Shown here in pieces: positions 39,407 to 60,543 of a stretch of DNA of 64,000 nucleotides; the first letter of the stretch is position 1, and each line of letters opens with the position of its first letter. A model generated the notes under the pieces. The model was given only the letters and a program-made list of their open reading frames with translations. It searched no databases and had not been told where the DNA came from. Source of the DNA: Deltaproteobacteria bacterium (lineage in GTDB: Bacteria > Desulfobacterota > GWC2-55-46 > JAJCZF01); NCBI GenBank assembly GCA_029262535.1, contig JAJCZF010000074.1, positions 8,395 to 72,394 on the forward strand, given 5' to 3'. The position numbers and the translations under genes are program-made.

Positions 39407-39490
39407 ATGAAGTACGCCAAAAGACCTGTCTCCGCGATAGCGGTCCTTTTTCTCATCTTATTATCCGGTGTGTTTAGCGCGGCCTGGGCC
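39407..39490 (+). other. Sec/SPase-I signal peptide of the giant protein (aa 1-28)
   Basis: MKYAKRP + hydrophobic core AIAVLFLILLSGVF + SAAWA|D. No lipobox Cys. Confidence 0.7.
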
Positions 39491-42400
39491 GACATAGCCG
39501 GGACGCTCACGGCCCTTGAGGGCCGGGTGGATATTTTGAGGCCGGGCGAGGATAGGGCAACCCCCGCAAAGCTCTTCGACAAGGTAAGTGTCGGAGACAT
39601 TATTAGGACAAAGAGCAAATCCAAGGCCGAGATAACCTTTGTAGACGATTCGGTCATAAGGCTTGCGGCGGGTTCGCGCCTTGAGATTCAAGAGTATCTC
39701 TTTAGTGGCGGGGAGAGAAAGAGCGGCGTGGTTAAGCTCTTTAGAGGCAAGGCTCGTTCTATAATAAAGAGGCAAAAGGGAGAAAAGGTGGGCCGCTTCC
39801 AGGTCAAGACCCCGACCGCCGTCGCCGGAGTGCGCGGTACGGACTTCTTCGTATTTCATCAGCTGGGCCTTACCGGCGTAATGGTCGTAAACGGTATCGT
39901 AGACGTATTTAACCTCGATATACCCGACGTGGTCGTTACCCTGACCGCCGGAACCGCCACAACGGTCGAGGGTGACAAACCGCCGACCCCGCCGCGCGGA
40001 GCGAGCGAAGGCGAGGGCGGTAAACATGAAGACGAAACGACGCCTCTAGAGGACGACGGCGAGGGCGGTGATGGCGAGGGCGAGGGTAGTGCGGATGAAG
40101 GCGGCTCCGGCGAAGGCACAGACGCGACAAGGATTGCCGCAATCGCGCCAAGTGGTGTTGTGGACCCGGTAGATACCGGCACCCCTGAAACCCCGATAGA
40201 GCCGGTTATCGTAGAGCCGGACCTTATACCTTATGAAGGCGAGACCGGCGACACGACCGCGCCAACGGTAAATATCACGAGCGGCCCGACCCTGATAACT
40301 ACCACAACGACAGCGGGTTTTACCGTTACGACCAACGAAGACCCAACCACATTCAGTTATACACTCGACGGTGACGTCGTAGGTGGCCTTAATCTTGTCG
40401 GCCTGGCGCCCGGTGTGCATATCTTTAGGGCCGCCGGTGCGGATGAGGCCGGCAATATCGGCTATGACTCCTACACATGGTTCTCCGGCACGGCCGGTTC
40501 GACCTTTACAGGTAATTCCTACGGCACGGGCTCAACCTTCACAGGTACCGCTCTTGCGGGTGATGTCTATATGGGAACCTCCACAGACGGCTCATGGATG
40601 ATGGATATCGCTGGCGACTGGGTCGGCCCCTCCGGCGCGACATGGAATATCGACGCGGGAGGAGACGGCTTTGACGACACCGGCCTTATATGGGAGGGTT
40701 ATTGGGTAAATCAGATGGAGGGTACATACGGTTCCCCCGTATCTGGAGTTGCACCCATGTCCGGCCCGGCAGGGCTCTTATATATTACGGAAGATTATAT
40801 CGCCTCCGGCGCGGGCACGGCTACCGGCTCGGTAGATACCGGGGCCGGAACCTTCGCGCTCGGAGTGATGGGATTCGATACATATGCGGAGATACCTCTT
40901 CTCTTCGATGCTGGCATTGATGGTACATTTCTGCACAGTAGCGCGGGCAATATCGAAGGCGATCCGGCAAGCCCTGTAGTCGGCCTCATGGGCGGGGTCG
41001 ATCCGTTATGGACCGGAACGCCGGGGGTACTTTTCATTGGTCAGTATGAAAATCCGGGCGCGAGCCGTTATTTCTCGGCCCTTTTGGAGGGCGGCACCTC
41101 GGATGGAGGAGCGTTACTTGGTTATATAGGCGGCGTATCTCCGGACGCGGAGAATATCCGTGTTCTGGCCGGTCTGCTCTACGTAAAGGACGATGGCGAG
41201 GGCGGTAATACCGCAGGATACGCGCTCTCCGATAATATAGCCGGTATATTCTACCCAGAACTCGGTATGTGGGAGACTACCGGGACTTTTTCAACAGTTG
41301 ATACCGGTCCGACTACAGCGACACCCGGAGAGCTCTTTGACGGAAGCGTCTCTATAGATCAGAATAGCGGCAACAACCCGGTCGTTGGCGATATTACGGG
41401 AACGTTGGCCTTAGAGTCTTTTTCAATAGAAGATCAGGATTCGGGCATATTAGTCGGCGCGGGCGAGGGGTTATTCACGGCCACGCCGAGCGCGTCCTGG
41501 TCTGCCAGGACGGGCGGAACTGCCACGGACGGCCCGGATAGCTCTTACTACATAACCGAGATAACCGGCACGAGCTGGGCCGGTGACAATATGGGCGGCA
41601 CCTTCGCGGGTACGGCACTTAGCGCCGACAGCATCACCGACTTTTCTGGCGACATTCAGGGCGTATACGAGGTAACGGGCAGCGGCAACTGGCAGGCCGT
41701 GATGCTCGGCACGACCGAGAGTAGCCCGATTCTCTTCGGCGGCGACGTGGACGGGGAGTTCCTCGAGGCCCAGAGCCCGCTCGTAGGCAGCGGAACGCTT
41801 ACAGGTTTTATGGGTAGCGACCTTCCATTTAATCCAGGCGGCACGACCTCTTTACTAATGATGGGTGACTATACGAATCCATGCGCGGCCCGTATAGTGG
41901 CTGGAGACCTCTCCGGTACGACCGCCGACGGCGGCACTTACCTTGGTCTAATGTTAGGGCTTGCTCCGGGTGCGGCCGATACGACATTCGACGCTATTGC
42001 CGCGGGCCTCTATATAAATCCCGATGGCGTCGGCGGTTATACCGTTGGAACCTTCCTAAACGGCAGCCCGATAGATGGCTCCTTCTTCTCTGAGCTTGGC
42101 ATGTGGTCCGCTACGATGCCGCTTGGCACATTCGCAACCGACGAGGGTGTGACTACGACGGTGCCCGGTGACCTATACGACGGCAGCCCGGAGCTATTTT
42201 ATAATGCCGTGGACGGCAGGGTCGGGGGCGACATAAATGGCCATCTCGAACTGGACTCCCTAATGGTGGACGGCATGGCCGGTCCGGTACTAATCGGCGC
42301 GGGCGGCGGCTTCTTTGATACGACACCCGGCCCCGGCGCGTGGGCGGCTACGGCGGGCGGAAGCATAGACGCGGGCAACCCGTGTGCGCCGGTCGGTTTA

Positions 42401-45400
42401 TGGGTATCCAATATAAGCGGCTCTTCGTGGGCCGGAGACGAGTTTGCGGCAACCATTTCCGGGCATTCCATAGATCAGATAAATCATACGACCTTTACAG
42501 GCGATATCTTCGGTATCTACGAGATAACCGGTAGCGGCAACTGGCAGGCCGCCACGACCGGGCGAGCTATCTCTACCCCGCTGGCCTTTGTGAATGAGGT
42601 TGGGGCCGAGATATATTCGACAACACTTCTTCACGAAGGAGCCTATACATATTCCGACGGCGGCAAGTACGAATACTCCTTCCGCGAGGACGGCAGTTTT
42701 GGTTTTGGCAATAGAAGGTTGAACGACGCAAGTTACGTAAAGGACGAATACCAGGCCGGTGGCACGTATAGACATATTACCAGCCCGCCATATAACTCCA
42801 CGACCTCGACATGGGACCCGGCTCTATTCGATACGACAACGCTGGCCGTAGCGCCCGCGCCGCTCGACGCCGGTACGGTAACTTTCGCCTTCGATAATGT
42901 CACACCGGTCGGCTCTTCGAGCGGACTTCTTAACGGTTATATGGGCGGAGTCGATTCGCTCTGGGTCGGCACCGATATAGCGGTCGATTTCGTGGGAGAA
43001 TATGAGAATACCGGCTCAAGTATCTTTTACGACCCGAATATCATAAGCCACGATTATATCACCGGCGAGGGCTCGACATACGCGGGCGGCACCTACCGCG
43101 GAATATTTGCGGGTATCGACCTCGCTACCTCGCTTGACGGAAATTTTTTAGGGATATATATAGCGCCGAGCACAGAGGTCGGTTTCCTTCACGGCTCGCT
43201 CTCCGGCGCGGCAAACCCGGCGATAGGCATGGCAGATATGACCGGACTCTTAAACAGGACACCGGTCGCACCGTCGCCTAGTCCGATCAGCCTTGACTTC
43301 GCTACCAACTTTATCGAGGGTAACGATATCTGGACAACCGGCTTTGCCGGTACCTTCGACGGTGGCGGCGCGATTGCCATACCTATGTGGGAGGGCTGGG
43401 GCAATAGCATCAGTCTTGTAGACTTTACCGCGCAAAGAGATATAGGCTGGGGCATATACGGCCTCGAGCTCTTCGGCGGATACGATACGCCTACTCCGAC
43501 ATGGACGGCCATCACGGGTGGAGAGGCCGAGTTCGGCCTGCTTAAACATAACGTAAGGCGCTCCGCCACCTACGACTATACAGATGGCAGCTCTTATTCC
43601 TATCTCTTTGACAGCCATAACGAATATCGTTCAAGAGATACCGGCGAGTCTACATTTACCTACCCCGGCGGCGGCGATACGATAACGACTAGCTATTACT
43701 CAAACGGCACGACGAAGGTTGTCGATACGCTTGCCGGTACGACGACTTACGGCGCGTGGAGCCCGGCGGCTTTCGAGCAGTTCGACCTTGAAACCATACC
43801 GGTGGTCGCGGGTGAGACGTCAAGCCTCACGACGAGCGATGAAATAGACGCGCATGATAGGAACTACGGCTTCTGGCTGGCAAGTGTTTCTGACGGAACT
43901 CTTACGGAAGGCAGGCTCGACGGAACTCTTTCGGGCGGCCATTACATGACCTATAGCTCGCTAGGCACGCTCGACGGCACGCTTTTAGGTACCATCAACC
44001 CAACACTCGGCACATTTGATTCCGCCATTGTCGGTACGCGCGCCGACACAATACCGCTTACGCATATGACCGAATTCGGGGACGCTATATATAAGACACG
44101 CCGTCAGATAGAGACCGAAACGCGTTATACGAACGGTGAGTACTATACCAGCGAGCACGACCTGTCCAATATCGAAGGCGCTTATAGCTACCATAACGCG
44201 GCTGGCACGTCTAGCTCAATGACCTATAATAACGGCGGAGATACCTTTGGTTACGACTCGGCGACAGGCCTTCGTAGCTACGGCTTCTGGGACCCGACCT
44301 CCTTTGATTTATCTACACTGGCCACGCTTCCTGTTCCTCCGGCGGGCCATTCTATCCTTGCCGAGGGCTACGAGCCGTGGGATCTCGGATGGTATATCGG
44401 ATGGCAGTGGGGTTACATGGGCGGAACCGACACGCTCTGGTCCGGTGTGGATATACCGGGTAAGATCATGGGTGAGTTCGGCGACTCCATAACGCCATAC
44501 CCCGGCCAGAATATGAACGGGGTCTTTTATCACGAAACCCTATCATCCACTAACGAGCTGGTACGCTCCGGCGACCCTGCTGAGAATATGACATTCGACG
44601 GAGGCGCATATGTCGGAGACCTCGGCGGCATACGCATCGGTAGTTCGCTCGAAGGCGCCTTTATCGGCCTCTACGTGGACCCGGCCGGTAACGCCGGCGT
44701 GCTCACCGGAGACTTTCTCGGTACGCAGTTCACCGATATAAGCCTATTTGAGATGGACGGACTCTTTAACAGGCAGCAGATAGAGGCCGGCGCTTCGACC
44801 AACACACCGGCTTCGGCCTTGAACGGAAGTCTTATAGACGACTGGTCCTTTGCTTATGGCATTCAGGGCGACTTCGCCGGGTCGGGCTCGCTTTCCAGTG
44901 GAGCTTCCGGTAGTGGCTGGGGCAATATATATACATTTAACGACCGCGTCGGAGACGACGCGCTCGATTGGGGTACGATTAGCTTTATGGACTTCGGCCA
45001 CGCCTCCTCGCCAGGGCCCGACTGGGACGCGGTCTTCGCGGGTAGTGGGCGTTTCGGTATCTATAACGCCTATACGACCTACGAGGGCAGATTAAATTAC
45101 ACCGGCGGCGGCGAGTACAGTTATTCATACAGGCACGACGGCTCCGAGGCCGTGGTACATCTCATCCGCGCCGACGGCACGACACGCGACGTAACATACA
45201 ACCCGGACGGCACGCTGGGTGTAGTGGATACGCTTCTTGGCAACTCTTCGGGTTTTTGGACACCGGGTGACGACCTGTCATTTCTGGCCCTGCCCCTTGA
45301 GCTTCCCGGTGGAGAGACGGCCTACCCCGATCCGACCGACGGACCGAGCGCGTCGGATACTGGCACGGCTAATGAAGGTTACTACCTCTTAAGTGTAGCC

Positions 45401-54400: not shown

Positions 54401-57400
54401 GAGCCGTGGGGCATCTATAAGATAGAACTCGGCGGCGACTACGCAAATCCCAACGGGGCGACAGGCTTTGAGATATCGCTCGGCGGCAGCGGCTGGAAGA
54501 ATCTCAATAACTGGCAAAACCCGAATACTTCTACCTACTTTTCGGGTGATAACTGGTATGCCGATATAACCGGTAACTGGAATACGGATGGTACTCTCGA
54601 CGGCACGATAAACGGCCGCTTCCTGACGCCCTTTGCGCTGGGCACGATAAATAGCGAGGCATGGGGTAGCTACGACACGGTGAACGCCGGTTTCTGGGAG
54701 GGGCTGGTCCTCGGCGAGTTCTACGAGACGCCGCTGGCCTTCGCCGGGATCATGGATTTTGAGGATGTGGGGACCTGGGCCGACGGGCCGAACTGGTCTC
54801 TCTTCGGCGAGTATGCCAGCGCCTTTAAAGAGGTGGGAGATATTATAGCGCGCACAGGCGGACTTGACGAGCCGTGGGACTGCGCCGCAGGCCTATGCGG
54901 ACCGACCGCGGCCCCGGTAGACGTAACGATACTGGGCGAGGTGATCGACTGGGATAACGAAGTGATGCAGGTCTTGCCCAATAACGCTTCTTATGTTTGG
55001 AATACCGAACTCTACAGCTGGAACGAAGGGCCGCAGACGAGGACGACCTTTGACGGCGGCGCATTCCGCGGTTTTGCCGGAGGCGTTCTGATCGACGACG
55101 GAGTAAACTTCTTCCAGGAGGTTGATGGATATTCGGTCGCGCTCTATATAGATCCCGAAGGCAATGTCGGTTATCTTAAGGGCGACGTGGCGGGTAACTA
55201 CTACTTTGATATGTACGGAGATGAGAGGGACAATCTTGGCGCGATAATAGAGAGTTACTCATTCTCGCTCCTAAATGCCGATGGCACCTTACAGGCCTAT
55301 GAGATGAAGACTCCGGGCAACCACTCCATAACTAGCGCGGCCAGTTTCTACAGCGAGGTCGTAACGAGCGCCACGCTGGATACCATGTTGTGGGGCGGCT
55401 TCCCGGTTGGTGGAGGCAACTTCGACGCGACCGACTATAACCCCGGCGGCGACGGATGGACACGCTACATACCGGGCGAGAGCTGGGGTATCTTTGATAT
55501 CATACTTAACGGCTACCCCGGCGAATACGATAATATGAATAACGACACCACATGGATGACAATGCTTGGCGGTTCAGGCACATTCGGCTCCAATCCGGAC
55601 GGGGTCGGCGGTTATTTTGATAACGACGGCTATTGGACTGCCTGGGTCCTTGACGGCACCGCCGTAAACGGAAAGCTCACAGGTAGCATAAGCTCCGGTC
55701 GTTGGATGACTTCGACTCATTTAGGAAATATATGGGGCGACATACTCGGCTACTATGATGGTCCCGGGAATCCGACTCCCGCCAACTGGGCCGGAAAAGC
55801 ACTTGGCGTATTCGACGGCGACTCGCTGGCCTTTAGCGGCAGGATTACTACGGAGCAGCAGGCGTGGATAACCGGCCCATGGCAGAACGGCCCGCAGGCC
55901 GGAATATTCGGTAACGACTGGGGAGAGAACTTCACCTCTGTCGGCGACGTAGGGGCATTTGCGGGTTCGCTCACTCCGCTTTGGAACTGTACGGCAGGGC
56001 CGCTCGCTTGCGGCCCGCAGACGACTAATGTGACATATATGGGTGAGATAATAGATCTTGACGCGGACCTAATTCCTGTGCTGGATTCATTTCCAAATAG
56101 GGCTAATGTCTGGAACAACGATCTTTTGAGTCACAATCTCTATAATTCTACCTTTACAACATTTGATGGAGGGTCTTTCTACGGCTTTATCGGAGGCGTG
56201 CTTATGAAAGGCCTTACAGACTCTCACGATGCCGAGGGAATAGTTGCGAGCCTCTATTACGACCCCGAAGGCAATATAGGCTACTTTACAGGCGGCCTGA
56301 ACGGTAGTTACAACTACTATATCCCGTCGTCGTATATGCCGGGACCGATAAACTATCACTATAGCGTCCTTAACGCCGACGGCACATGGACGCCGACCGA
56401 AAAGGTCGCGGCCGGGGGCCATACCATAACGAGCGCCGCGCTCTTTACGAGCGAGGTCATAACCAATCCCTATATGACGGCCTCTCTCGAAGGCTCGTTC
56501 GGCGCGGGCGAGAACGGTTATATATATGGTAAGGAACATAACCAGGAGCCGTCCTACTACGCATGGACCCGTTATGTGCCGGAACAGCCCTGGGGTCTCT
56601 TCGACATCGTCTTTAACGGTTACATGTCGAGCGGACAGGGTTATCAGAATCCGCTTGCCGAGACTACATGGCAGACATGGATGGGCGGCGAAGGACGTTT
56701 CGGATATTTCTTTGACGATGGCGCCGCAGGTTTTGATTACTGGGGCCTCTGGAGCGCGGATACGGCCTCCAGCCCGTGGGGAGAGCTTAACGAGGAGAAC
56801 TACTTCGAGTCCGGCAGTCTATCGGGTCGTTACCTGACCTTTACTCATACCGGTTCTATATGGGGCGATATAGTCGGCTACTACGAAGACCCGCTCATCG
56901 GCGGCAACCCTGAGGACTGGGCCGCGAAGTCGGTCGGAGTATTTGAGGGCGAACAGCTCGCCTTTAGCGGAGAGATATCCTTCTCCACGGGATGGAACAC
57001 AGGGCCTTATTTTGATATATTCGCCGATGACGGCACCGCAAGCGCGCTTGCTACCTATGACGAGATATGGGGTATCTCCGGCAGTACACAGGCCCCGTGG
57101 TCCTGTAGCGCCGGTTGTGTCCCGCAAAATACCGATGTGCTTCACATGTCCCAGTTGTTGGCATCGGGCGCTTATAACCAGGACGGTCCGCTCATATGGA
57201 ACTCGAACATTACCAGTTATGAGCGTTACGGTTATACATACCAGACATACGACGGCGGCTCCTTTGACGGCTTTATCGGAGGACTTCTCTTAAACGGTAA
57301 TGTGGACGCGCGTGTGGCCAATGTCTACATGGACCCTGCGGGCAACGCCGGTTATATATGGGCGGTGCTTGACGGGCGTTACGGTCTTGACTTGACCGAT

Positions 57401-60382
57401 ATTGGTATTAATACGCCTTACCGCCTCATAGAGGCGGACGGCCTTTGGCAGCCGACGCAGATGGCGACTTTTGCCGAGGTGGACTTCACACCGGCCAACT
57501 TCCAGAGTACCGGTATCGTCACCAACGCCGACATGAACGCCGGGGTATCTGGCATATTCGGCGCGGGTAACGGCATGATCGACGGCGTGGAGTACCGCAG
57601 CGGCACACCGCCGACGGCGGCGTGGACACGTTATCTCGACGGCCAGCAGTGGGGCGTCTACGACCAGATACTCGACGGCTATGACGTGACACTTGGCGGC
57701 GGTACATATTCAAATCCGCTACTCGATCCGACCTTCTCAATACAGATAGGCGGCGTTGGCGTTTTCGGCTCCATAGAGACCTCACCCTTCAACTATGTGG
57801 ACAACTGGGGCTGGTACTACGGCGAGGTAAATGACGGCCCGTGGACCGGCGGTACGCTGTTAGGAAACTACGCCGGCAGCTGGATGAGCCAGCGCTATAT
57901 CGGCGACATATGGGGCGATGTGCTTGGTTACTACGACACCTCCTTATCGCCGAACGACGGCAACTGGACGGCCAAGAATATCGGTATATTCACCGGCGAT
58001 CCGCTGGCTTTCTCCGGAGAGTCTTACGAGGCCGCCAGGTGGGAGGAGGGTCCGCTTAACGCGACCTATACCGATGTTGCGGGTTCATTTACCGACCTGG
58101 CGACGATATCTCCGAGATTACACGCGGGCAGCGTTGACGCGCCCTGGTCTTGTCCGGGCGGAGTCGGCACATGCGTACCGTCTGTTACCGATGTGCTCTA
58201 TCTCGGCGACGTGGATAATACGGTAATCCCGTATCTCGCACAGCCGCTCTTATGGAACCAGAATCTTAAGAGCTATAATATAGACCTGTTAAACGACACG
58301 ACCTTTGATGGCGGTTCATTCTCAGGCTTCATAGGCGGCCTATGGGCCGGTAATGATATCGACGCCACCGCCGTCAGCCTCTATATAGACCCCGACGGAA
58401 ATGTCGGTTGGTTTACCGGAGATCTCGCGGGCCAGTACTATATGGATATAATAGCCTTCGGCACGAGGCAGCTCCTTTATGGCGACGGACAGTGGACGGC
58501 GACCCAGATGAATAGCTTTGGCAATCACTCGATATCTAGCGCGGCGCTCTTCACCGCCGAGGTCGTTACCGACTCTACGATGGACGCCGACCTCTTCGGT
58601 TGGTTCGGCGGCGGCTCCGGTTCGATATACGCTACCGAGTATACCGATAACGCAACCTACAGCGCCGCGTGGACGCGTTATATAAACGGCGAGTCGTGGG
58701 GTATATACGATATGATACTCGACGGCTACCCGGCCGCCGGCTCTTTCACGAACCCGGTTCCGGATACGACACTGACGGCGGCGGTTGGCGGAGGCGGAGT
58801 ATTCGGAAGCCGCCCGGACGGTTTCGGCGGTTATAATCCCGAGACCGGTTTCTGGCTCGCATATATCAACGGTCCCTCGTGGCAGAATAATGTAGTCGAT
58901 ACGGATATGAGCGGCCTTTACGTTTCGGAGACGACTTACGGCACCATCGACGGACGCGTTATCGGCTACTACGATAACGCCGGTAATTGGGCGGCAAAGA
59001 GCCTTGGCGTATTCGAAGGAGCGCCGCTCGATGCATGGGCCAATATGAATGATTACCTCCAGTACTTCGATACCACCTTACAGCAGGAGTATCAGGTGCA
59101 GGCCAATCTCGGTCTGCATGGAGCGACCTTCGACTTCGTAGGGCAGTATATGGACTTTAGCGCGGGCATGCATAATAGCGTGACCTTGAATACCTTCATG
59201 ACGAGTTGGAATAATATAGACTCAAATTCTACGACATATACCGGAGACTCTTTTAAGGGTTTACTCGGCATGAGGGATACGATGAATACGGCTGAAAAAG
59301 GCGACGTAGATATAGAGATGATCGCGCTTGAGCTGACCAGCGCGGGCAATCTGGGTTTTGTCAAATTATCGGGTAGTGGCGAGAGTTACTACACGCCTGA
59401 GACGGTACTGGTACAGGGCGGAGTGACACATATACCGATAGAGCTTACCGCCTTGAACCTGTCGACCTTTGCGAGCAATGTCCTTACATTCAACTACAGT
59501 CCGACTATAAAGGTAGGCGCTTTCGGCGGCGGCGGAGCGATAACGCCTGTTGACGTTACATGGGTCGATGTGGAATACGATAACGGCGCTTTCTTCTCGG
59601 ACTACGGTCCCATCGGAGGTCTGATGGGCGGTAGCTATACGGGACCCGCGACTGGAAACTGGACGATAGATACGAAGTTAACCAATTATCTCGCATCGGA
59701 TTCGGCTATTCTCCATACCCGTACCGAAGGTACGGGAGGGTGGTCTCCGGACAGCGCCTTTACTGGCAAGACTCACGCCTACGGCGCCGAGACCGATGCG
59801 AGCGAGGCTATGACGTGGATAGCCGTAGGCGATACTATGGGCAATACCAATACCTTCAATCCCGGCGCTATTACGAAGTTCCAAGCCGTGACGACAGGCG
59901 CGTGGTTCAGGACTGATCAGTTCCTTGAGATGATCGGTGTTATAGCCGGTACTGCGAATACCGCGGCGCTCGACCAGTTAAACATACCGCATGCCGAGGT
60001 TGCTCTTATGACGATGTTCGGAGCCGGAAACGGAATCGACGTAACCCTGAATAATATGAAGTTCTACGGTTACTCGGCAGGACAAGCGCCGAAGATATTT
60101 GCTACAGAGGACGTCACCGGTAATATCACCGGGACGCCGACGACCGGCAATCCCTTTACCATTAACGCGGTAAGCGGCGGCGCGGCTTCCGCACAGTTTG
60201 AGATTCAGCAGTGGGACACCGGCGTCACGCAAAAGTGGCTCGGAACGATTGACGGCGGCACCGGCACCCTGTCGGGCGGCACCTATACCGGCCCTGTTAA
60301 CTTCACAGGCGCGGCCGCCGGAGATATTAGTACCGGAACGGGGACATTTTCAGGAACGGCAGCCGGCATAGCAACACCCTAG
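39407..60382 (+). CDS. Giant secreted repeat protein, 6,991 aa (FecR-like N-domain; repeat family unassigned)
   Basis: One ORF of 20,976 nt (3 x 6,992) with no interruption, and an AGGGG Shine-Dalgarno about 9 nt upstream of the ATG. All overlapping ORFs on other frames are short or antisense. Confidence 0.9.
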   Translation: MKYAKRPVSAIAVLFLILLSGVFSAAWADIAGTLTALEGRVDILRPGEDRATPAKLFDKVSVGDIIRTKSKSKAEITFVDDSVIRLAAGSRLEIQEYLFSGGERKSGVVKLFRGKARSIIKRQKGEKVGRFQVKTPTAVAGVRGTDFFVFHQLGLTGVMVVNGIVDVFNLDIPDVVVTLTAGTATTVEGDKPPTPPRGASEGEGGKHEDETTPLEDDGEGGDGEGEGSADEGGSGEGTDATRIAAIAPSGVVDPVDTGTPETPIEPVIVEPDLIPYEGETGDTTAPTVNITSGPTLITTTTTAGFTVTTNEDPTTFSYTLDGDVVGGLNLVGLAPGVHIFRAAGADEAGNIGYDSYTWFSGTAGSTFTGNSYGTGSTFTGTALAGDVYMGTSTDGSWMMDIAGDWVGPSGATWNIDAGGDGFDDTGLIWEGYWVNQMEGTYGSPVSGVAPMSGPAGLLYITEDYIASGAGTATGSVDTGAGTFALGVMGFDTYAEIPLLFDAGIDGTFLHSSAGNIEGDPASPVVGLMGGVDPLWTGTPGVLFIGQYENPGASRYFSALLEGGTSDGGALLGYIGGVSPDAENIRVLAGLLYVKDDGEGGNTAGYALSDNIAGIFYPELGMWETTGTFSTVDTGPTTATPGELFDGSVSIDQNSGNNPVVGDITGTLALESFSIEDQDSGILVGAGEGLFTATPSASWSARTGGTATDGPDSSYYITEITGTSWAGDNMGGTFAGTALSADSITDFSGDIQGVYEVTGSGNWQAVMLGTTESSPILFGGDVDGEFLEAQSPLVGSGTLTGFMGSDLPFNPGGTTSLLMMGDYTNPCAARIVAGDLSGTTADGGTYLGLMLGLAPGAADTTFDAIAAGLYINPDGVGGYTVGTFLNGSPIDGSFFSELGMWSATMPLGTFATDEGVTTTVPGDLYDGSPELFYNAVDGRVGGDINGHLELDSLMVDGMAGPVLIGAGGGFFDTTPGPGAWAATAGGSIDAGNPCAPVGLWVSNISGSSWAGDEFAATISGHSIDQINHTTFTGDIFGIYEITGSGNWQAATTGRAISTPLAFVNEVGAEIYSTTLLHEGAYTYSDGGKYEYSFREDGSFGFGNRRLNDASYVKDEYQAGGTYRHITSPPYNSTTSTWDPALFDTTTLAVAPAPLDAGTVTFAFDNVTPVGSSSGLLNGYMGGVDSLWVGTDIAVDFVGEYENTGSSIFYDPNIISHDYITGEGSTYAGGTYRGIFAGIDLATSLDGNFLGIYIAPSTEVGFLHGSLSGAANPAIGMADMTGLLNRTPVAPSPSPISLDFATNFIEGNDIWTTGFAGTFDGGGAIAIPMWEGWGNSISLVDFTAQRDIGWGIYGLELFGGYDTPTPTWTAITGGEAEFGLLKHNVRRSATYDYTDGSSYSYLFDSHNEYRSRDTGESTFTYPGGGDTITTSYYSNGTTKVVDTLAGTTTYGAWSPAAFEQFDLETIPVVAGETSSLTTSDEIDAHDRNYGFWLASVSDGTLTEGRLDGTLSGGHYMTYSSLGTLDGTLLGTINPTLGTFDSAIVGTRADTIPLTHMTEFGDAIYKTRRQIETETRYTNGEYYTSEHDLSNIEGAYSYHNAAGTSSSMTYNNGGDTFGYDSATGLRSYGFWDPTSFDLSTLATLPVPPAGHSILAEGYEPWDLGWYIGWQWGYMGGTDTLWSGVDIPGKIMGEFGDSITPYPGQNMNGVFYHETLSSTNELVRSGDPAENMTFDGGAYVGDLGGIRIGSSLEGAFIGLYVDPAGNAGVLTGDFLGTQFTDISLFEMDGLFNRQQIEAGASTNTPASALNGSLIDDWSFAYGIQGDFAGSGSLSSGASGSGWGNIYTFNDRVGDDALDWGTISFMDFGHASSPGPDWDAVFAGSGRFGIYNAYTTYEGRLNYTGGGEYSYSYRHDGSEAVVHLIRADGTTRDVTYNPDGTLGVVDTLLGNSSGFWTPGDDLSFLALPLELPGGETAYPDPTDGPSASDTGTANEGYYLLSVADGTLVGERMAGTSTGRYISERTLGTIDGDLLGTYDHDVDTFEVFNYGRWQKTGNLSHVADLRSETNTMAHEHVGYFDDTSSVSGSYEYTYHEDNSFGMAKLTRADGTYTQVTYSPNGRLDVVDTGGAGNTSNSWWDRGTMDLSTLATPPTVAGMTFVNLNTIDDYLIYQTSGSSLDGLMGEIPSLWTGPGVGMPITALGQYSGNYNGVFYQDFVASNDYTQGNNVVATYDGGAYVGLLGGADVSSRGVLDGLFYAIYMDPAGDSGILSSTDLAGTSYRDAAAFELDGTVTREQFATSAEVGLTPADMGFAVMYGSMTGTLTAEFDGGASLNVTPGFSASETLSIVNNATLTGQEWGIYGISLFGTMGTQTTTWSGIAMGQGDFGRVQSGAVMVDDPGYWYADVTSGTFASEAMSAELLGMFITDNKAGIIEGRMRGSYNDGLDTFQLASLGKWEALAPTFWGDITGGQFYDLNGGLVTPTALTSLTGRYAGGFVTPHFALSEGILAGDAVTIGKKLFTADVTGASDIGAVMAGHMVGVDDALTASIATIYIAPDGGGGQTGGLYQSRSINGEFQPTQIWAAGASFSETDKGPVDVAAANLATSIWTTSYIEPGIGTVTGGSLEGDFLGSGSILGDVRISTNSIYNNATHVTAPWGTFEMAIDSKGFLNPLVSSTWNGQARGWNAFGAYWDPAANAGAGGFTDDFGFWSVDMVNGNWNADGTLTAETASLFMTPYKLGIVTGDLFGVHETGVAGELGGLGVGTWESDWLAFSAILQNGATAWADGPVNGIFGDNGAGGFADIDNLWVFAGSAIAPWDCPATSCAPQSTTVNYLGMLGYDLAVISPGTYIWDSELEINDYAEPGRTTTYDGGSFLGFTGGLLSDGTVDGRVASIYIDPEGNVGYLTGTIDGVYDPATLYAPGGGDYFMMDASGPWNPTQMVSAGALGLGPANFYNNVRTSAGLTATLSGEFTGPSGSIDGAAYSPGVGEIAAWTRYIDGEPWGIFDVALDGYPGAVNPCGETTWTGFMGGEGVFGSRPDGGGGFLDNNGYYLTYASPGSWDAAKVTATLDGDFMTAETFGRISGDLIGYYDASGNWAGKALGVFDGATYGFVTGLNNSFYHFYDGDDTIWDRDSISGYFGSIASPFTIPGTPVSFMAMGKVSGIWSQTWWDNFSGTGSAWDGFIGGNRSFDNKTISGGVASFYIANDGSAGILDATLDGTIYPGSIFKVDGTDLKATEKTASGYIPANFNTYLATSAVNGEITGEFAGGTGSISTVGFLQDIAFNASGTRTQWFVNPGTAKDEPWGIYKLELGGYYTNPAAATTFDMTLGGNNWRAATDYWIMDIAGNWNADQTVDGTINGRYLNLTSLGSINSGMWGSYDTDTGGVWEGVALGTFEETPLAFSGEITFATDWDTGPWWGLYGNDGLGAFDAVDDFYGVAGSLENPWDCTAGCVPQTIDVVYMGQPCSVNNQPLIWNNDLYAFDVKWNEGAFSGFIGGALLDGAATGGVRLIYLDPDGNVGYIEGTLLGDYYGESSMIPFSADGQWVATEVSDSLGYDGVDPVYAEYLHGDLGRDPYFKTTLSGGFGAGGASGFINGVDFNGDFATYGYRGWTRYIDGEDWGIFDVIIDGYQGGGYSNPNPDSTFSGLVGGSGNFGSHFVEGPSYVKNPGYWLADVNGTVTNRNLDGTAVGTFMTREAIGPIWGDLYGYHEGAAWGGKLMGVFEGDPVAYSGELLTGGTFFNTNLSPPTESDSITGLMGSLNAINPGGSTDIDLLGEYLNPNGLRLFGADFEGTASDGTAFLGIYAGLDRQGTLDGVLGGIYIRPDGVGGHIAGTLLADDLAGEFLPDLGMWRASSANFIATDLGATAELPGDLFSGGTAFDDSEVNGLVGGDIFGNMLLIAQSVVDIDSGLLIGITGGLFGTNPAPGWTAHGGGTVNNGGLDPDDLWLAQITGSAWAAGNMDGTYSGFAMNPNEMTNFSGDLRGQYEVTGSGNWQAISIGTFGAATPLNFFAGLTPRFWMTGDFNWVEQGFLNGDTYDYSYESGTNQGFGRYAPLGVNANRVDTTFFADGTTESFDRVTGLYSSGTWNEAGGEAAMAAWYGTPDSSVPSPSAFGVEAMGGWFDIYMGSTTSLWPVTTPTPTAVPVTVLAKHIGSDWQSGEPRLIYEGARYLRNDPTWGATFNDYDGGAFRFGLVGMIEADDTIDPDIVGLYIDPAGNAGLLNGVVTGTAYTDIGMAEMAGQITPRQMAMAAEVGVLPASLDSSIYRSGISNPVSMLSGTLPGGGALDSTIYEIGSSTIVDYSGPTVVQQWGTLNYVFEAGGFANPGAATTWSATMGGYDPFGPDATGLADELGYWLADTVGGTIGDRTLRADFSGNFITPTKLGTIDGSLYGLYDTAVGEWGGRGLATYESDPLLYAGEITPILMTTSAGRRDIYNYSDGSIHIIEIMDDNTYARVVEQGTGYHRVTSYFSNGKVVELDRLTGAVTETTWNPAVDVLSTILTPPTGYTGSTLTPGALTTAAGKLDMLMGGIDSLWSGTPNIPVTMMGEYDYNSGAPYIFRDWFVDSPAFPEIGFTTYDGGDYAGAIAGGIALDESMEAHFAALYLDSSGNAGLIYDPVSGNADSSIDIFNMAGGLNPYQMATAAEVGADPNVDLYWTQSGGLGDRLAGWFPDGDTTADMSNEYYRFRTLSLTNSVTGTVPAQPWGIFTGQFKYGAATFANPGVFNTWYGGLAGMDPIGAYWTGSAFADDPGIYAADIINGNWADGSFDGEIDGWFMTPNKMGPLAGNIYGLYDELDGVWGAYTIGTWEGAPYGFVSNFNNSFYHFDNTPVILAPTATTMLDGYLGSFDSPFATPGIGVNFSVMGQGVDAGSQTWFGQFSGTGSAWDGWTGGHLSNTDDTINGIVNALYIDDVGNAGILGANFFGDLLPNEVFVASGTNLTATQKATGGYTAGLFNIYLQRGRPEGGIGGGFPGQPGYIGSPGIQGLVSVESETRWFDNGTIEPWGIYKIELGGDYANPNGATGFEISLGGSGWKNLNNWQNPNTSTYFSGDNWYADITGNWNTDGTLDGTINGRFLTPFALGTINSEAWGSYDTVNAGFWEGLVLGEFYETPLAFAGIMDFEDVGTWADGPNWSLFGEYASAFKEVGDIIARTGGLDEPWDCAAGLCGPTAAPVDVTILGEVIDWDNEVMQVLPNNASYVWNTELYSWNEGPQTRTTFDGGAFRGFAGGVLIDDGVNFFQEVDGYSVALYIDPEGNVGYLKGDVAGNYYFDMYGDERDNLGAIIESYSFSLLNADGTLQAYEMKTPGNHSITSAASFYSEVVTSATLDTMLWGGFPVGGGNFDATDYNPGGDGWTRYIPGESWGIFDIILNGYPGEYDNMNNDTTWMTMLGGSGTFGSNPDGVGGYFDNDGYWTAWVLDGTAVNGKLTGSISSGRWMTSTHLGNIWGDILGYYDGPGNPTPANWAGKALGVFDGDSLAFSGRITTEQQAWITGPWQNGPQAGIFGNDWGENFTSVGDVGAFAGSLTPLWNCTAGPLACGPQTTNVTYMGEIIDLDADLIPVLDSFPNRANVWNNDLLSHNLYNSTFTTFDGGSFYGFIGGVLMKGLTDSHDAEGIVASLYYDPEGNIGYFTGGLNGSYNYYIPSSYMPGPINYHYSVLNADGTWTPTEKVAAGGHTITSAALFTSEVITNPYMTASLEGSFGAGENGYIYGKEHNQEPSYYAWTRYVPEQPWGLFDIVFNGYMSSGQGYQNPLAETTWQTWMGGEGRFGYFFDDGAAGFDYWGLWSADTASSPWGELNEENYFESGSLSGRYLTFTHTGSIWGDIVGYYEDPLIGGNPEDWAAKSVGVFEGEQLAFSGEISFSTGWNTGPYFDIFADDGTASALATYDEIWGISGSTQAPWSCSAGCVPQNTDVLHMSQLLASGAYNQDGPLIWNSNITSYERYGYTYQTYDGGSFDGFIGGLLLNGNVDARVANVYMDPAGNAGYIWAVLDGRYGLDLTDIGINTPYRLIEADGLWQPTQMATFAEVDFTPANFQSTGIVTNADMNAGVSGIFGAGNGMIDGVEYRSGTPPTAAWTRYLDGQQWGVYDQILDGYDVTLGGGTYSNPLLDPTFSIQIGGVGVFGSIETSPFNYVDNWGWYYGEVNDGPWTGGTLLGNYAGSWMSQRYIGDIWGDVLGYYDTSLSPNDGNWTAKNIGIFTGDPLAFSGESYEAARWEEGPLNATYTDVAGSFTDLATISPRLHAGSVDAPWSCPGGVGTCVPSVTDVLYLGDVDNTVIPYLAQPLLWNQNLKSYNIDLLNDTTFDGGSFSGFIGGLWAGNDIDATAVSLYIDPDGNVGWFTGDLAGQYYMDIIAFGTRQLLYGDGQWTATQMNSFGNHSISSAALFTAEVVTDSTMDADLFGWFGGGSGSIYATEYTDNATYSAAWTRYINGESWGIYDMILDGYPAAGSFTNPVPDTTLTAAVGGGGVFGSRPDGFGGYNPETGFWLAYINGPSWQNNVVDTDMSGLYVSETTYGTIDGRVIGYYDNAGNWAAKSLGVFEGAPLDAWANMNDYLQYFDTTLQQEYQVQANLGLHGATFDFVGQYMDFSAGMHNSVTLNTFMTSWNNIDSNSTTYTGDSFKGLLGMRDTMNTAEKGDVDIEMIALELTSAGNLGFVKLSGSGESYYTPETVLVQGGVTHIPIELTALNLSTFASNVLTFNYSPTIKVGAFGGGGAITPVDVTWVDVEYDNGAFFSDYGPIGGLMGGSYTGPATGNWTIDTKLTNYLASDSAILHTRTEGTGGWSPDSAFTGKTHAYGAETDASEAMTWIAVGDTMGNTNTFNPGAITKFQAVTTGAWFRTDQFLEMIGVIAGTANTAALDQLNIPHAEVALMTMFGAGNGIDVTLNNMKFYGYSAGQAPKIFATEDVTGNITGTPTTGNPFTINAVSGGAASAQFEIQQWDTGVTQKWLGTIDGGTGTLSGGTYTGPVNFTGAAAGDISTGTGTFSGTAAGIATP
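39503..39994 (+). other. FecR-like domain (aa ~33-196)
   Basis: The pattern G.V.I.R.G......A..GD.I..GD.I.T...S.A.I.F.D.S.I.L...S.L.I, followed by VKTPTAVAGVRGTDFFV, is typical of the FecR periplasmic sensor fold. Confidence 0.6.
40001..40126 (+). other. Acidic Gly/Glu/Asp low-complexity linker (aa 199-240)
   Basis: SEGEGGKHEDETTPLEDDGEGGDGEGEGSADEGGSGEGTD, read directly. Confidence 0.8.
40250..40483 (+). other. Ig-like (bacterial Ig / HYR-like) domain (aa ~282-359)
   Basis: DTTAPTVNITSGP...TAGFTVT...FSYTLDG...LAPGVHIFRAAGADEAGN is the common surface-protein Ig-like pattern. Confidence 0.5.
40484..59039 (+). repeat. About 17-18 long (280-500 aa) degenerate protein repeats in at least four subtypes
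   Basis: In-frame (L/I/F)Y(I/V/L/M)xPxG-type anchors start at 41177, 42008, 43154, 44669, 46166, 47045, 48074, 48998, 49928, 50855, 52025, 53204, 54116, 55142, 56252, 57323 and 58379, with a degenerate one at 59327. Confidence 0.8.
59040..60379 (+). other. Distinct C-terminal region (~445 aa) ending in a Gly/Thr-rich tail
   Basis: The WTRY/WGIFD/YxDPxGN motifs stop after ~59.0 kb. The sequence becomes richer in N/Q/M/F/K and ends ..GTGTLSGGTYTGPVNFTGAAAGDISTGTGTFSGTAAGIATP. Confidence 0.5.
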
Positions 60383-60445
60383 CCACACACCACACAGGTG
60401 TGCTTCTATTTTCGCGCCACACAGGTGTGGTTTTACTTTCGCGGA
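60383..60445 (+). repeat. Gene-end palindromic motif, two tandem copies directly after the giant-gene stop
   Basis: ccacacaCCACACAGGTGTGCTTCTATTTTCGCG followed by CCACACAGGTGTGGTTTTACTTTCGCGGA. It starts at the first base after the TAG. Confidence 0.7.
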
Positions 60446-60502
60446 GAGAGTTCTTAGAGGACTGCTTGTGTCTTGCCCGCGTCTTTAATATGTAGATATG
60501 TA

Positions 60503-60543
60503 GAAAGGGACCGCCGGTATATTCGGCGGTCCCTTTCTTTTTG
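60503..60543. terminator. Strong bidirectional intrinsic terminator
   Basis: A perfect 14-bp stem gaaagggaccgccg / cggcggtccctttc with a 7-nt loop. It has a T-run on the plus side and the complementary A-rich flank for the minus side, and it sits between the convergent giant gene and the adaptor gene. Confidence 0.8.

Follow-up and report, generated by a model that had tools for sequence, protein, structure and literature searches.

A 735-kDa FecR-domain protein from a Deltaproteobacteria bacterium, encoded next to a TPR-barrel outer-membrane protein, represents an uncharacterised multi-phylum family of predicted secreted proteins and is its longest listed member

Background

The locus described here has its closest known counterparts in three groups of cell-envelope systems. 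The first are the Slam or type XI secretion systems (T11SS), in which a TPR-barrel outer-membrane protein (OMP) serves Sec-exported cargo such as TbpB, fHbp, hemophilin or NilC. T11SS have so far been described in Proteobacteria only and, to our knowledge, the cargo of Slam-like OMPs outside this group is largely unknown. The second are the intimin/invasin and LapA adhesins, which retain their N-terminus in the periplasm by a dedicated domain, keep a segment in an outer-membrane pore, and carry a long array of beta-repeats with a distinct C-terminal tip.

The third group is formed by signalling pathways that employ FecR-domain proteins. In FecR, the PF04773 domain is in contact with an outer-membrane protein on its periplasmic side (PMC5498481). 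In Campylobacterota, a gene cluster for a FecR protein, a TPR protein and a CHASE2 adenylate cyclase has been noted and was described, together with a phosphodiesterase, as one pathway (PMC9239204). FecR-CHASE2 pairings are also documented in Burkholderia (PMC5192318) and in the cyaD1 locus of S. meliloti with its outer-membrane receptor NsrA (PMC5498481, PMC7529298).

Here, we analyse a giant gene and its surroundings within a 64-kb window, i.e. the whole stretch of DNA under study, which belongs to a contig of a draft assembly, and we compare the locus with 47 related loci and with the systems mentioned above.

Results

The giant gene and its product

The giant gene (39407..60382, plus strand, stop codon included) is an uninterrupted reading frame with an ATG start and only one stop, at its end. 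It encodes a secreted protein of 6,991 aa with a computed mass of 735 kDa and a computed pI of 4.05. A Shine-Dalgarno-like AGGGG is located 8-9 nt 5' of the ATG, and a terminator-like hairpin with a 16-bp stem followed by a T run (60502-60538, plus strand) closes the transcription unit. At the DNA level, the internal repeats reach identities of at most 76-91 % over at most 143 nt, and because they are so diverged, a repeat collapse or another mis-assembly is unlikely. The raised G+C content of the gene resides mainly in codon position 2 (0.51 versus 0.36-0.41 in the neighbouring genes), which is explained by the Gly/Ala/Thr-rich composition of the protein. Horizontal transfer as the cause of the high G+C content was rejected in favour of this effect of amino acid composition.

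The protein is rich in glycine (15.6 %), threonine (9.8 %), alanine (8.6 %) and aspartate (7.6 %) and poor in lysine (1.1 %) and cysteine (0.23 %). Its N-terminus reads MKYAKRPVSAIAVLFLILLSGVFSAAWA before and DIAG after the predicted cleavage site and has, as judged by eye and not by a predictor, the n/h/c layout of signals cleaved by signal peptidase I (SPase-I). The resulting Sec/SPase-I signal peptide spans aa 1-28 (39407..39490, plus strand) and would be cut behind AWA. It is the sole strongly hydrophobic stretch of the whole protein, it lacks the cysteine of a lipobox, and equivalent N-termini are present in the family members described below. The protein ends with ...GTFSGTAAGIATP and has no hydrophobic C-terminal segment; likewise, no model of an LPXTG, PEP-CTERM or T9SS CTD sorting domain matched at its C-terminus. 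A first-pass annotation of the locus had already postulated the single 21-kb frame, the SPase-I signal peptide and the biased composition, all of which agree with our results. It had also found no sign of RTX repeats, cadherin/Big/VCBS modules, a TPS domain, an autotransporter or the three C-terminal sorting signals, and indeed none of the corresponding Pfam and NCBIfam models matches the giant protein.

FecR domain, linker and a 90-aa module

The same annotation had assigned the protein to no recognisable family. This assessment holds for the repeats and the C-terminal domain, but it overlooked a FecR domain close to the N-terminus (aa 65-165; 39599..39901, plus strand). The match to PF04773 covers 95 of 97 profile positions with a score of 53.6 bits (cutoff 24) and E = 3.2e-14, and the NCBIfam scan yielded partial Lsa33/LipL45 matches over the FecR region. 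The domain occupies the N-terminus in 110 out of 159 family sequences; many of the other 49 are fragments.

The FecR domain is followed by an acidic low-complexity linker rich in glycine, glutamate and proline (aa ~190-285; 39974..40261, plus strand), which might be the segment that crosses the barrel of an outer-membrane protein. Next comes a module of about 90 aa (aa ~286-375; 40262..40531, plus strand) that phmmer detected in 11 family proteins. It occurs in tandem in the homologues P0034 and P0060, and arrays of up to six tandem copies exist in some homologues. The Pfam scan gave no match for this module, which by its pattern of residues might be Ig-like.

An array of long beta-modules

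The largest part of the protein is made up of 17 full all-beta modules of about 300 aa each (aa 528-6543; 40988..59035, plus strand), which were delimited by a self-trained HMM and by alignment. With the same HMM we identified a partial copy comprising only the N-terminal third of the module (aa 6562-6718; 59090..59560, plus strand) and two extra C-terminal half-copies inside units of about 500 aa (aa 1400-1551 and 1897-2053). At least four module subtypes can be distinguished. Their pairwise identity is 27-47 % as determined by BLAST of the protein in chunks; a self-BLAST of the whole protein returned the identity match alone. Some copies are followed by Tyr/Gly-rich inserts of about 110 aa, and these inserts account for the spacing of 280-500 aa between the repeats that had been reported before. 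Six cysteine pairs of the type PW[DSN]C-x3-6-C are present in the protein, a pattern that suggests folding outside the cytoplasm.

The AlphaFold2 (AF2) model of a single module (aa 5519-5854) has a pLDDT of 82.5 and a pTM of 0.85. A structure prediction of single units followed by a Foldseek search had been proposed along with an HMM scan. Foldseek found no matching fold for the model in the PDB or in BFVD, comparison of the module profile with PDB sequences produced noise only, and Pfam and NCBIfam contained no matching family.

The C-terminal domain

The protein terminates in a conserved domain of about 270 aa (aa 6719-6991; 59561..60379, plus strand), which we defined by family alignment and which 141 family sequences carry at their C-terminal end. 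A repeat-like half is followed by a terminal subdomain (aa ~6863-6991; nt 59993-60379) that closes with the family motif F.G.AAG...G.FSGTAAG[IV]A. In the AF2 model of the domain (pLDDT 87.5, pTM 0.86), the eight predicted strands of the terminal subdomain have pLDDT values above 95.

No solved fold, PDB sequence, Pfam family or NCBIfam family matched this domain, and the profile search against the PDB gave noise. None of the 495 Foldseek matches in the PDB was significant (best E-value 0.013). TbpB, fHbp and hemophilin are absent from these matches, with fHbp being included in the library, and the intimin and invasin barrels appeared without significance (E = 0.03-0.3, TM < 0.2). An alignment of the terminal subdomain with fHbp by hhalign resulted in a probability of 0.1 %, and TbpB_B_D and Lipoprotein_C of Pfam matched neither the giant protein nor its C-terminal domain. 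Since the models are confident and match no solved structure or curated family, both the module and the C-terminal domain may represent new families or folds.

A protein family in several phyla

An exhaustive HMMER search with the module profile revealed 487 representative proteins, 232 of them at E ≤ 1e-30, so that the repeats are not idiosyncratic, as had been supposed. Because of this result, the low counts of a word-indexed search (one match for two repeat units, seven for the C-terminal profile) are no sign of rarity. The general layout of the family is a signal peptide, the FecR domain, an acidic linker, 0 to ~18 modules and the C-terminal beta domain. The smallest member, P0164, consists of the FecR domain and the terminal subdomain with zero modules. 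The protein of the window (P0002) is the longest among the matches listed; others reach 3,400-4,100 aa, and one exceeds 4,711 aa and runs off the edge of its locus. Judged by these comparisons, no listed member of this uncharacterised multi-phylum family of predicted secreted proteins is larger than the giant protein.

The hosts belong to the Syntrophales, other Desulfobacterota, Omnitrophota, Planctomycetia and Thermodesulfovibrionales, and they include the syntrophs Syntrophus, Smithella and Syntrophorhabdus. Two cultured Geomonas species possess a short version of about 1,280 aa together with a gene for a CHASE2 cyclase.

The partner outer-membrane protein

Directly upstream of the giant gene lies a gene for an OMP of 512 aa (37495..39033, plus strand), which was identified by Pfam and synteny. 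Behind its signal peptide come about six TPR repeats (aa ~38-215) and a barrel (aa ~225-512), and the OMP ends with ...LIYKY, a canonical aromatic C-terminus. The barrel has weak Pfam matches to BBP2_2 (30.8 bits), DUF2860 (30.1 bits) and SlipAM/DUF560 (PF04575; 24.4 bits against a cutoff of 22, E = 2.6e-5, 180 of 288 profile positions). In the set of 32 syntenic OMPs, 28 match BBP2_2, 22 match TPR_Slam and 14 match DUF2860, and SlipAM was outside the top 25 Pfam families. Of the 57 closest database homologues, 18 have a record of PF04575, and some of the 57 are named 'surface lipoprotein assembly modifier' in NCBI and UniRef.

The nearest OMPs, with 42-43 % identity, come from MAGs labelled 'Deltaproteobacteria' or Thermodesulfobacteriota. 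NCBIfam yielded sub-threshold matches to EpsL and TIGR03016 only, and the OMP profile retrieved only noise or generic TPR matches from the PDB sequences. No Pfam or NCBIfam model of an autotransporter, intimin, TPS or POTRA/Omp85 protein matched the OMP or the giant protein. We place the predicted barrel on the fringe of the Slam/DUF560-BBP2-DUF2860 superfamily. In Desulfonema limicola, the gene for a SlipAM-positive OMP of more distant kinship is directly followed by a gene for a FecR protein; this FecR partner lacks the C-terminal domain of the family.

Conservation of the gene neighbourhood

The 47 related loci were gathered with an alignment built around the motif [LI]Y[IV]DPxGN[AV]G. The OMP gene is located directly upstream of the relative of the giant gene in 29 of the 30 loci that have enough upstream DNA, and directly downstream of it in one further locus. 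This pairing extends over Desulfobacterota, Omnitrophota, Planctomycetia, Thermodesulfovibrionales and Geomonas. Since the OMP gene keeps its position in so many loci and in several phyla, the two genes, as far as gene order can tell, are a two-gene cassette with the OMP as the dedicated partner, in accordance with the first impression of a dedicated-looking OMP.

Further genes accompany the cassette in a part of the loci. A gene for Skp/OmpH lies immediately 3' of the relative of the giant gene in 14 loci and a SurA-like gene was found in 13. A gene for a CHASE2 protein with a class III adenylate cyclase adjoins the cassette in 15 of the 47 loci, including both cultured Geomonas, while about two thirds of the loci have no CHASE2 gene in the DNA covered. 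GAF-containing proteins are encoded in five loci, and the one examined by Pfam is a GAF-HD-GYP protein. Skp, SurA-like and CHASE2 genes are all absent from the window, and a tblastn search of its 64 kb with a representative CHASE2 cyclase gave no match.

Directly upstream of the OMP gene, the window contains a gene for a PAS-GGDEF diguanylate cyclase (36381..37331, plus strand), which according to Pfam has no periplasmic domain. A chemosensory, c-di-GMP-producing cluster further upstream had been taken as one of the hints at an undescribed system. However, only 3 of the 47 loci have a GGDEF homologue close to the cassette, and the Che/GGDEF neighbours are not conserved; the signalling gene that recurs elsewhere is that of the CHASE2 cyclase. 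Neither a sigma factor nor a TonB-dependent receptor was found among the scanned neighbours in the window. On the other side of the giant gene, HlyD_3 and FtsX/MacB_PCD genes of the MacAB type are located on the minus strand (60563-63970). They have no homologue in any of the 47 related loci, in which T1SS or LapG/LapD partners are not conserved either.

Discussion

The family and its near-constant OMP neighbour point to an uncharacterised cell-envelope system for display or sensing. The earlier proposal of an undescribed surface or secretion system is thus supported by the unmatched module and C-terminal domain and by the dedicated OMP, but it has to be restricted, since the OMP belongs to the edge of a known barrel superfamily and a FecR/TPR/CHASE2 cluster is already known.

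We consider it most plausible, with a rough probability of 0.45, that the giant protein is a surface fibre partnered with the OMP, has a periplasmic FecR head and functions in adhesion or as a contact antenna. The protein would leave the cytoplasm via Sec and stay unfolded in the periplasm, a stage at which the Skp and SurA-like chaperones of the relatives would serve, and it would then be passed to the Slam-like TPR-barrel OMP. T11SS cargo is known to cross the outer membrane unfolded, and some of it needs Skp (bioRxiv 10.1101/2024.09.26.615229). The FecR domain would remain on the periplasmic side, where it would bind the TPR domain of the OMP and, in the relatives, be within reach of the CHASE2 receptor cyclase, and the acidic linker would span the barrel. 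The modules and the C-terminal domain would form a long, acidic, disulfide-stapled fibre at the surface, whose reach would be fixed by the number of modules. The reading frame, the domains, the family, the conserved synteny and the lack of a match to known repeat or fold families are observed; surface exposure, topology, translocation or anchoring by the OMP and any signalling output are inferred.

Several observations speak against a surface fibre of this kind. The DUF560 match of the barrel is marginal and exceeded by BBP2_2 and DUF2860, the C-terminal domain is unlike the barrels of known Slam/T11SS cargo in fold and sequence, and the FecR partner of D. limicola does without this domain. 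Of the genes for Skp, a SurA-like protein and CHASE2 that accompany the relatives, none is present in the window, and the OMP gene and the giant gene are separated by a gap of 373 nt with a weak hairpin. We also know of no precedent among Slam-type proteins for the passage of a 735-kDa protein through a barrel of about 280 residues.

It is conceivable, though unlikely, that the system mainly serves signalling. The FecR protein would then be the sensory or ligand-presenting partner in an envelope-spanning cyclic-nucleotide pathway, which would run from the TPR-barrel OMP via the FecR protein to a CHASE2 cyclase or another second-messenger enzyme, and the repeats would be a sensing surface and not an adhesin. 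Comparable arrangements would be FecA-FecR surface signalling or NsrA-CyaD1/CyaK in Sinorhizobium. The CHASE2 cyclase genes adjoining the cassette in 15 of 47 loci, the GAF proteins in five, the one-pathway cluster of Campylobacterota (PMC9239204), the FecR-CHASE2 pairings in Burkholderia and S. meliloti (PMC5192318, PMC5498481, PMC7529298) and, in the window itself, the PAS-GGDEF gene next to the OMP gene are all consistent with such a role. However, neither the window nor about two thirds of the related loci provide a CHASE2 gene in the DNA covered, the GGDEF protein has no periplasmic domain, and a purely sensory role leaves up to 18 large modules unexplained. A signalling function is compatible with a surface fibre and the two do not exclude each other.

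Rather improbable is a location of the whole giant protein in the periplasm, as a scaffold tethered to an OMP that only anchors it and mediates no crossing of the outer membrane. The FecR domains characterised so far do work in the periplasm (PMC5498481). Moreover, translocation signals of known systems were not found with Pfam and NCBIfam, and Skp and SurA-like neighbours fit periplasmic handling equally well. On the other hand, seventeen or more modules of about 300 aa would presumably make a very long particle for the periplasm, and anchoring alone would need no dedicated barrel. Surface fibres are typically very acidic, poor in lysine and arginine, rich in G, T, D, Y and W, and variable in module number, and it is these that the composition and the changing number of modules in the family resemble.

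A genuine type XI pair, modelled on TbpB, fHbp and hemophilin, in which a DUF560 barrel would recognise the eight-stranded C-terminal domain as its cargo signal and would release or display the protein C-terminus first, appears improbable to us. The combination of TPR repeats and a barrel with a PF04575 score above the gathering threshold (24.4 versus 22 bits), the PF04575 records and Slam names among the close homologues (18 of 57 for the former), the eight confidently predicted strands and the 14 adjacent Skp genes, together with the Skp requirement of some T11SS cargo (bioRxiv 10.1101/2024.09.26.615229), argue for it. Yet BBP2_2 and DUF2860 outscore SlipAM on the OMP, and neither the 495 Foldseek matches nor hhalign (0.1 % with fHbp) nor the TbpB_B_D and Lipoprotein_C models connect the C-terminal domain to known cargo. 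In addition, the D. limicola cassette has a FecR partner without this domain, and the restriction of described T11SS to Proteobacteria does not favour this assignment.

An artefact, be it a faulty or chimeric assembly of the repeats or a decaying pseudogene that happens to be read through, is very improbable: although the source appears to be a contig of a draft assembly, 6,991 codons are open in frame, the domains follow each other from N to C as in the rest of the family with a proper head and tail, the internal repeats are too diverged at the DNA level to fool an assembler, and relatives of 3,400-4,100 aa and of more than 4,711 aa exist. Practically negligible is an RTX/LapA-like adhesin secreted by a type I system via the HlyD_3 and FtsX/MacB_PCD products, whose genes lie downstream at 60563-63970 but were rejected as secretion partners, since they are of the MacAB type, lie on the opposite strand beyond the terminator-like hairpin and have homologues in 0 of 47 related loci, and since the giant protein begins with a Sec signal and lacks RTX repeats.

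Returning to the surface fibre with its periplasmic FecR head, one could go further and speculate, with considerable doubt, that the Slam-like OMP both threads and holds the FecR-anchored fibre, and that contact with the fibre or load on it is signalled via FecR to CHASE2 cyclases or other second-messenger enzymes in an envelope system common to several phyla. If true, this would be a protein-fibre form of cell-surface signalling, mainly of syntrophic or partner-dependent anaerobes, whose threaded fibre would comprise two or more new beta folds.

Independent of the exact mechanism, an entire clade of Slam-like OMPs outside the Proteobacteria gains a concrete partner candidate with this family. 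It also ties the unexplained association of FecR, CHASE2 and TPR genes to a physical object, namely a modular protein of up to 735 kDa. The hosts include syntrophs, Omnitrophota and the metal-reducing Geomonas, for which contact with other cells or with surfaces matters. Because cultured Geomonas carry a short version of the protein and the CHASE2 cyclase, the hypotheses are directly testable.

Comparison with known systems

The Leptospira surface proteins LipL45, Lsa33 and Lsa19, which have a FecR domain (NF033165, NF047849, NF047876) align with the N-terminal ~180 aa of the giant protein (E = 5e-16 to 7e-4). The likeness is limited to the FecR region, reaches 58.7 bits against a cutoff of 420, and the Leptospira proteins have only about 180-390 aa. 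The inverse autotransporters and the giant adhesins of the LapA type are functional analogues only. Their layout is similar to that of the proposed fibre, but the barrel is a separate protein here and Big, cadherin, RTX and LysM modules are missing.

With FecA-FecR-FecI signalling the giant protein shares the PF04773 domain. In contrast to FecR, it has neither an anti-sigma N-terminal domain nor a transmembrane helix, and there is no ECF sigma factor or TonB-dependent transducer near its gene.

The resemblance to Slam/T11SS is more extensive. In both cases an OMP of about 500 aa consists of a periplasmic TPR part followed by a small barrel, and its gene adjoins that of a Sec-exported partner whose N-terminal part varies and whose C-terminal beta domain is conserved. 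Eight strands are predicted in this C-terminal domain, Skp is often encoded alongside, and PF04575 matches and Slam names occur in a part of the OMP family. The differences are the DUF560 match of the OMP, which is marginal and ranks below BBP2_2 and DUF2860, and the C-terminal domain of the partner, which by sequence and Foldseek appears unrelated to barrels of the TbpB/fHbp type. Furthermore, the partner has a FecR head and a mass of up to 735 kDa, and the hosts are Desulfobacterota, Omnitrophota, Planctomycetia and Nitrospirota and not Proteobacteria.

The FecR/TPR/CHASE2 cluster of Campylobacterota likewise encodes a secreted FecR-domain protein beside a TPR protein, and the CHASE2 and class III cyclase genes in 15 of 47 related loci, as well as the GAF genes in five, extend this parallel. 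The window itself has no CHASE2 gene, and the TPR proteins are alike at the level of description. What sets the present family apart from this cluster is the FecR protein, which is extended by modules of about 300 aa, from 0 to ~18 in number, and by a new C-terminal domain.

An uninterrupted giant gene

The giant gene consists of one ATG-initiated ORF of 6,991 codons plus stop (39407..60382, + strand), which confirms the uninterrupted 21-kb gene of the first-pass annotation. Its product has a computed mass of 735 kDa and a pI of 4.05, and its composition is as had been estimated by eye (G 15.6 %, T 9.8 %, A 8.6 %, D 7.6 %, K 1.1 %, C 0.23 %). The N-terminus, MKYAKRPVSAIAVLFLILLSGVFSAAWA|DIAG, has on inspection the SPase-I signal layout that had been claimed for it, and it is the sole strongly hydrophobic segment of the protein. 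A Shine-Dalgarno-like AGGGG motif lies 5' of the start codon, and 3' of the stop codon lies a hairpin (60502-60538; 16-bp stem, then a T run). The G+C content of the gene is 0.57 compared to approximately 0.50-0.53 in neighbouring genes; since the excess is located mainly at codon position 2, it mirrors the amino acid composition of the protein.

The palindrome CACACAGGTGTG, which looks like a REP-like intergenic element, occurs in eight exact copies in the window, compared to 0.06 expected by chance. One copy is situated just past the OMP stop codon (39043-39054) and two just past that of the giant gene (60391-60402 and 60418-60429). The other five lie within 61833-62279 at a spacing of exactly 103 bp, in a tandem array (103 bp x 4.3) between an HlyD-like and an FtsX/MacB-like gene.

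Domains and repeats of the giant protein

No recognisable known domain had been reported for the giant protein, but a FecR domain (PF04773) at aa 65-165 was overlooked (Pfam, E = 3.2e-14). This region gave only sub-threshold NCBIfam matches to Leptospira FecR-type proteins. Outside of it there is no Pfam or NCBIfam match at E <= 1, so the Pfam check that had been proposed left the repeats unannotated. As first stated, features of RTX/T1SS, type V (autotransporter/TPS), T9SS, LPXTG and PEP-CTERM proteins are all absent from the giant protein and its cassette.

C-terminal to the FecR domain, an acidic Gly/Glu/Pro-rich linker (aa ~190-285) is followed by a ~90-aa module, which is tandemly repeated in some homologues. 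A self-trained HMM resolved the repeat array into 17 full copies of a ~300-aa module (aa 528-6543), two extra C-terminal half-copies inside ~500-aa units (aa 1400-1551 and 1897-2053) and a partial copy (aa 6562-6718), and the final ~270 aa are taken up by a distinct C-terminal domain. The module copies belong to several subtypes with pairwise identities of 23-47 %, and behind some of them lies a Tyr/Gly-rich insert of ~110 aa. Of the 16 cysteines, twelve are arranged in six PW[DSN]C-x3-6-C pairs within aa 2815-6256; all modules of one subtype open with such a pair. These pairs are probably short disulfide loops and therefore suggest that the protein folds outside the cytoplasm.

The best internal matches (aa 506-1100 with 3734-4048, and aa 3013-3528 with 4717-5266) are collinear over more than one module, with 38-46 % identity. 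Segmental duplication of such multi-module blocks is therefore the probable way in which the giant protein grew, and may account for its length, roughly double that of its next-largest relatives.

The module model (aa 5519-5854, with the 17 copies as input alignment; pLDDT 82.5, pTM 0.85) is predicted to be all-beta with long strands of 10-21 residues. The suggested fold search with a single unit gave no Foldseek match at E <= 1e-3 in PDB or BFVD (TM-scores <= 0.2), the top rows being non-significant membrane barrels, and a profile search of PDB sequences was empty. The C-terminal domain, modelled from 28 family sequences (pLDDT 87.5, pTM 0.86), ends in ~130 residues with eight predicted strands at pLDDT >95. 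Foldseek yielded no significant PDB match to this model (best E = 0.013, TM < 0.2), and profile searches against PDB and Pfam were empty. Module and C-terminal domain are thus two confidently predicted, unannotated beta domains.

A widespread protein family

An exhaustive HMMER search with the module profile against 1.84 billion representative proteins revealed 487 family members at E <= 1e-3, 232 of them at E <= 1e-30. The protein of the window (P0002) is the top match and the longest listed, followed by proteins of 4,121 and 3,756 aa, and of ten members that were looked up, none carries a name other than 'hypothetical protein'. The architecture is constant. A signal peptide precedes one FecR domain or two; tandem ~90-aa modules come next in some members, then 1-12 copies of the ~300-aa module and a C-terminal domain ending in F.G.AAG...G.FSGTAAG[IV]A[KR]. 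A minimal NCBI member of 404 aa (P0164), found with the family alignment of the C-terminal domain (A4), comprises signal peptide, FecR domain, linker and the terminal eight-strand subdomain, with zero modules. Judged from this protein and the constant ends, FecR head and C-terminal tail are the conserved core of the family, and the modules are an optional insert of variable length. The long repeats had been called idiosyncratic; they are unannotated, but the module is common to 487 proteins.

When one genome per GTDB species was scanned for a sequence pattern, 47 related loci were obtained, in Syntrophales/Syntrophaceae/Smithella, Syntrophorhabdaceae, Desulfobacterales, groundwater 'Deltaproteobacteria', Omnitrophota, Planctomycetia and Thermodesulfovibrionales. 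Among the hosts are two cultured species, Geomonas azotofigens Red51 and G. paludis Red736.

The partner OMP

The OMP encoded upstream of the giant gene (37495-39033; 512 aa) comprises a signal peptide, ~6 TPR repeats and a ~280-aa C-terminal barrel region with a terminal aromatic residue, as is typical of outer-membrane proteins. Its 'dedicated-looking' appearance was borne out: of the 30 related loci that extend 1.7 kb or more upstream, 29 have a homologue (28-43 % identity) directly 5' of the giant gene, and one additional locus has it directly 3'. By gene order, both genes form a conserved cassette in at least four phyla. The giant protein marks the extreme of its family, which is widespread, unnamed and linked by synteny to a Slam-like OMP.

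The nearest relatives of the OMP are those from Thermodesulfobacteriota-type MAGs (42-43 % identity). Its barrel weakly matches three Pfam families that are related to each other (BBP2_2 30.8 bits, DUF2860 30.1, SlipAM/DUF560 24.4 with a cutoff of 22), and among 32 syntenic OMPs, BBP2_2 was found in 28, TPR_Slam in 22 and DUF2860 in 14. A database search with the barrel profile showed precomputed PF04575 in 18 of the 57 closest homologues, and among the source names of these homologues are 'surface lipoprotein assembly modifier', 'DUF2860 family protein' and 'tetratricopeptide repeat protein'. Because of these mixed assignments, we regard the OMP as a clade of its own on the margin of the Slam/DUF560-BBP2-DUF2860 barrel superfamily; in architecture and size it corresponds to Slam. 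NCBIfam gave only sub-threshold matches (EpsL, TIGR03016), and matches of the OMP profile to PDB are confined to the TPR part.

In Desulfonema limicola (CP061799.1, 10001-12483), a distant, clearly SlipAM-positive TPR-barrel OMP is directly followed by a 319-aa FecR protein with an acidic tail, in which neither module repeats nor the C-terminal domain is present. OMP-FecR pairs thus extend beyond the giant-protein family, and FecR appears to be what this OMP clade generally pairs with.

Genomic neighbourhood

Several other genes recur among the 47 related loci: a CHASE2 protein with a class III adenylate cyclase (15 loci, both Geomonas included), Skp/OmpH directly 3' of the giant gene (14), a SurA-like gene (13), a small HAMP protein (10), DUF3047 (6) and GAF-containing proteins (5; GAF-HD-GYP in L001). 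None of these is present in the 64-kb window. In ten loci from Omnitrophota, Planctomycetia and some deltaproteobacterial hosts (L009, L010, L023, L031, L033, L036, L037, L040, L045, L048), three conserved genes come after the cassette. They encode a SurA-like protein, a small HAMP protein and a ~165-aa product that contains an HExxH-like motif but matches no Pfam family.

In the window, a PAS-GGDEF gene lies directly 5' of the OMP gene, preceded by a complete Che-type cluster. The whole region (25175-37331) encodes REC-HD-GYP, CheW, CheR-TPR, CheW, NIT-HAMP-MCP, CheA-CheW-REC, CheB, an unassigned 144-aa ORF, REC, a CheC/CheX-like protein and PAS-GGDEF, a layout that suggests a nitrate/nitrite-sensing pathway with cyclic-di-GMP output. 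The REC-HD-GYP (HD_5) regulator at its head (25175-26320, +) has a paralogue at 15679-16797 (-). The first-pass annotation had considered the giant gene together with this cluster, but the two are not conserved as neighbours: the Che cluster recurs in none of the 47 related loci, and GGDEF homologues are found near the cassette in only three. Beyond the terminator hairpin, downstream of the giant gene and convergent to it, lie the HlyD-like and FtsX/MacB-like genes; their homologues are absent from all 47 loci.

Possible function of the cassette

The most likely mechanism, to which we assign a probability of roughly 0.45 and which we largely infer, is an OMP-partnered surface fibre with a periplasmic FecR head. 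The giant protein would be exported by Sec and held by periplasmic chaperones. Its FecR head would stay in the periplasm where, by analogy to FecR-FecA contacts, it would dock on the OMP's TPR domain, and the acidic linker would occupy the barrel. Modules and tail would make up a long, acidic surface fibre that serves attachment or contact sensing. Where a CHASE2 neighbour is present, this fibre may be linked to cAMP signalling through the head.

It is unlikely, though the strongest of the alternatives, that the giant protein is primarily a signalling component, and its retention in the periplasm is somewhat less probable again. We are more doubtful still that it is genuine cargo of type XI secretion (T11SS): an fHbp sequence (validated against PDB) reached a probability of only 0.1 % with the profile of the terminal subdomain. 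An artefact by repeat-driven mis-assembly is very improbable, because the internal repeats are highly diverged at the DNA level (no more than 76-91 % identity, over 143 nt at most). A T1SS adhesin can practically be dismissed, as the protein lacks RTX/T1SS features.

Comparison with known systems

The surface fibre reading touches on the earlier proposal of an undescribed surface or secretion system, which is supported in part: the family is unnamed, its domains are unannotated and the OMP synteny is conserved, but a Slam-like OMP and the FecR-TPR-CHASE2 cluster are already known. In T11SS, described in Proteobacteria only, DUF560 OMPs move adjacent cargo with an eight-stranded C-terminal barrel across the outer membrane, and some of the cargo is Skp-dependent (bioRxiv 10.1101/2024.09.26.615229). 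The cassette resembles T11SS in OMP architecture, adjacency, the conserved, predicted eight-strand C-terminal domain and, in related loci, Skp neighbours; it differs in that this C-terminal domain has neither fold nor sequence similarity to TbpB/fHbp-type barrels.

Clusters of FecR, TPR, CHASE2-cyclase and phosphodiesterase genes probably constitute a single pathway in Campylobacterota (PMC9239204), FecR-CHASE2 pairings are found in Burkholderia (PMC5192318), and at the S. meliloti cyaD1 locus CHASE2 cyclases are fed by the outer-membrane receptor NsrA (PMC5498481, PMC7529298). The related loci fit this pattern, whereas the window lacks CHASE2. Judged by sequence and synteny, the known kinds that the cassette approaches are two: the Slam-like OMP with its partner, and the FecR-TPR-CHASE2 cluster.
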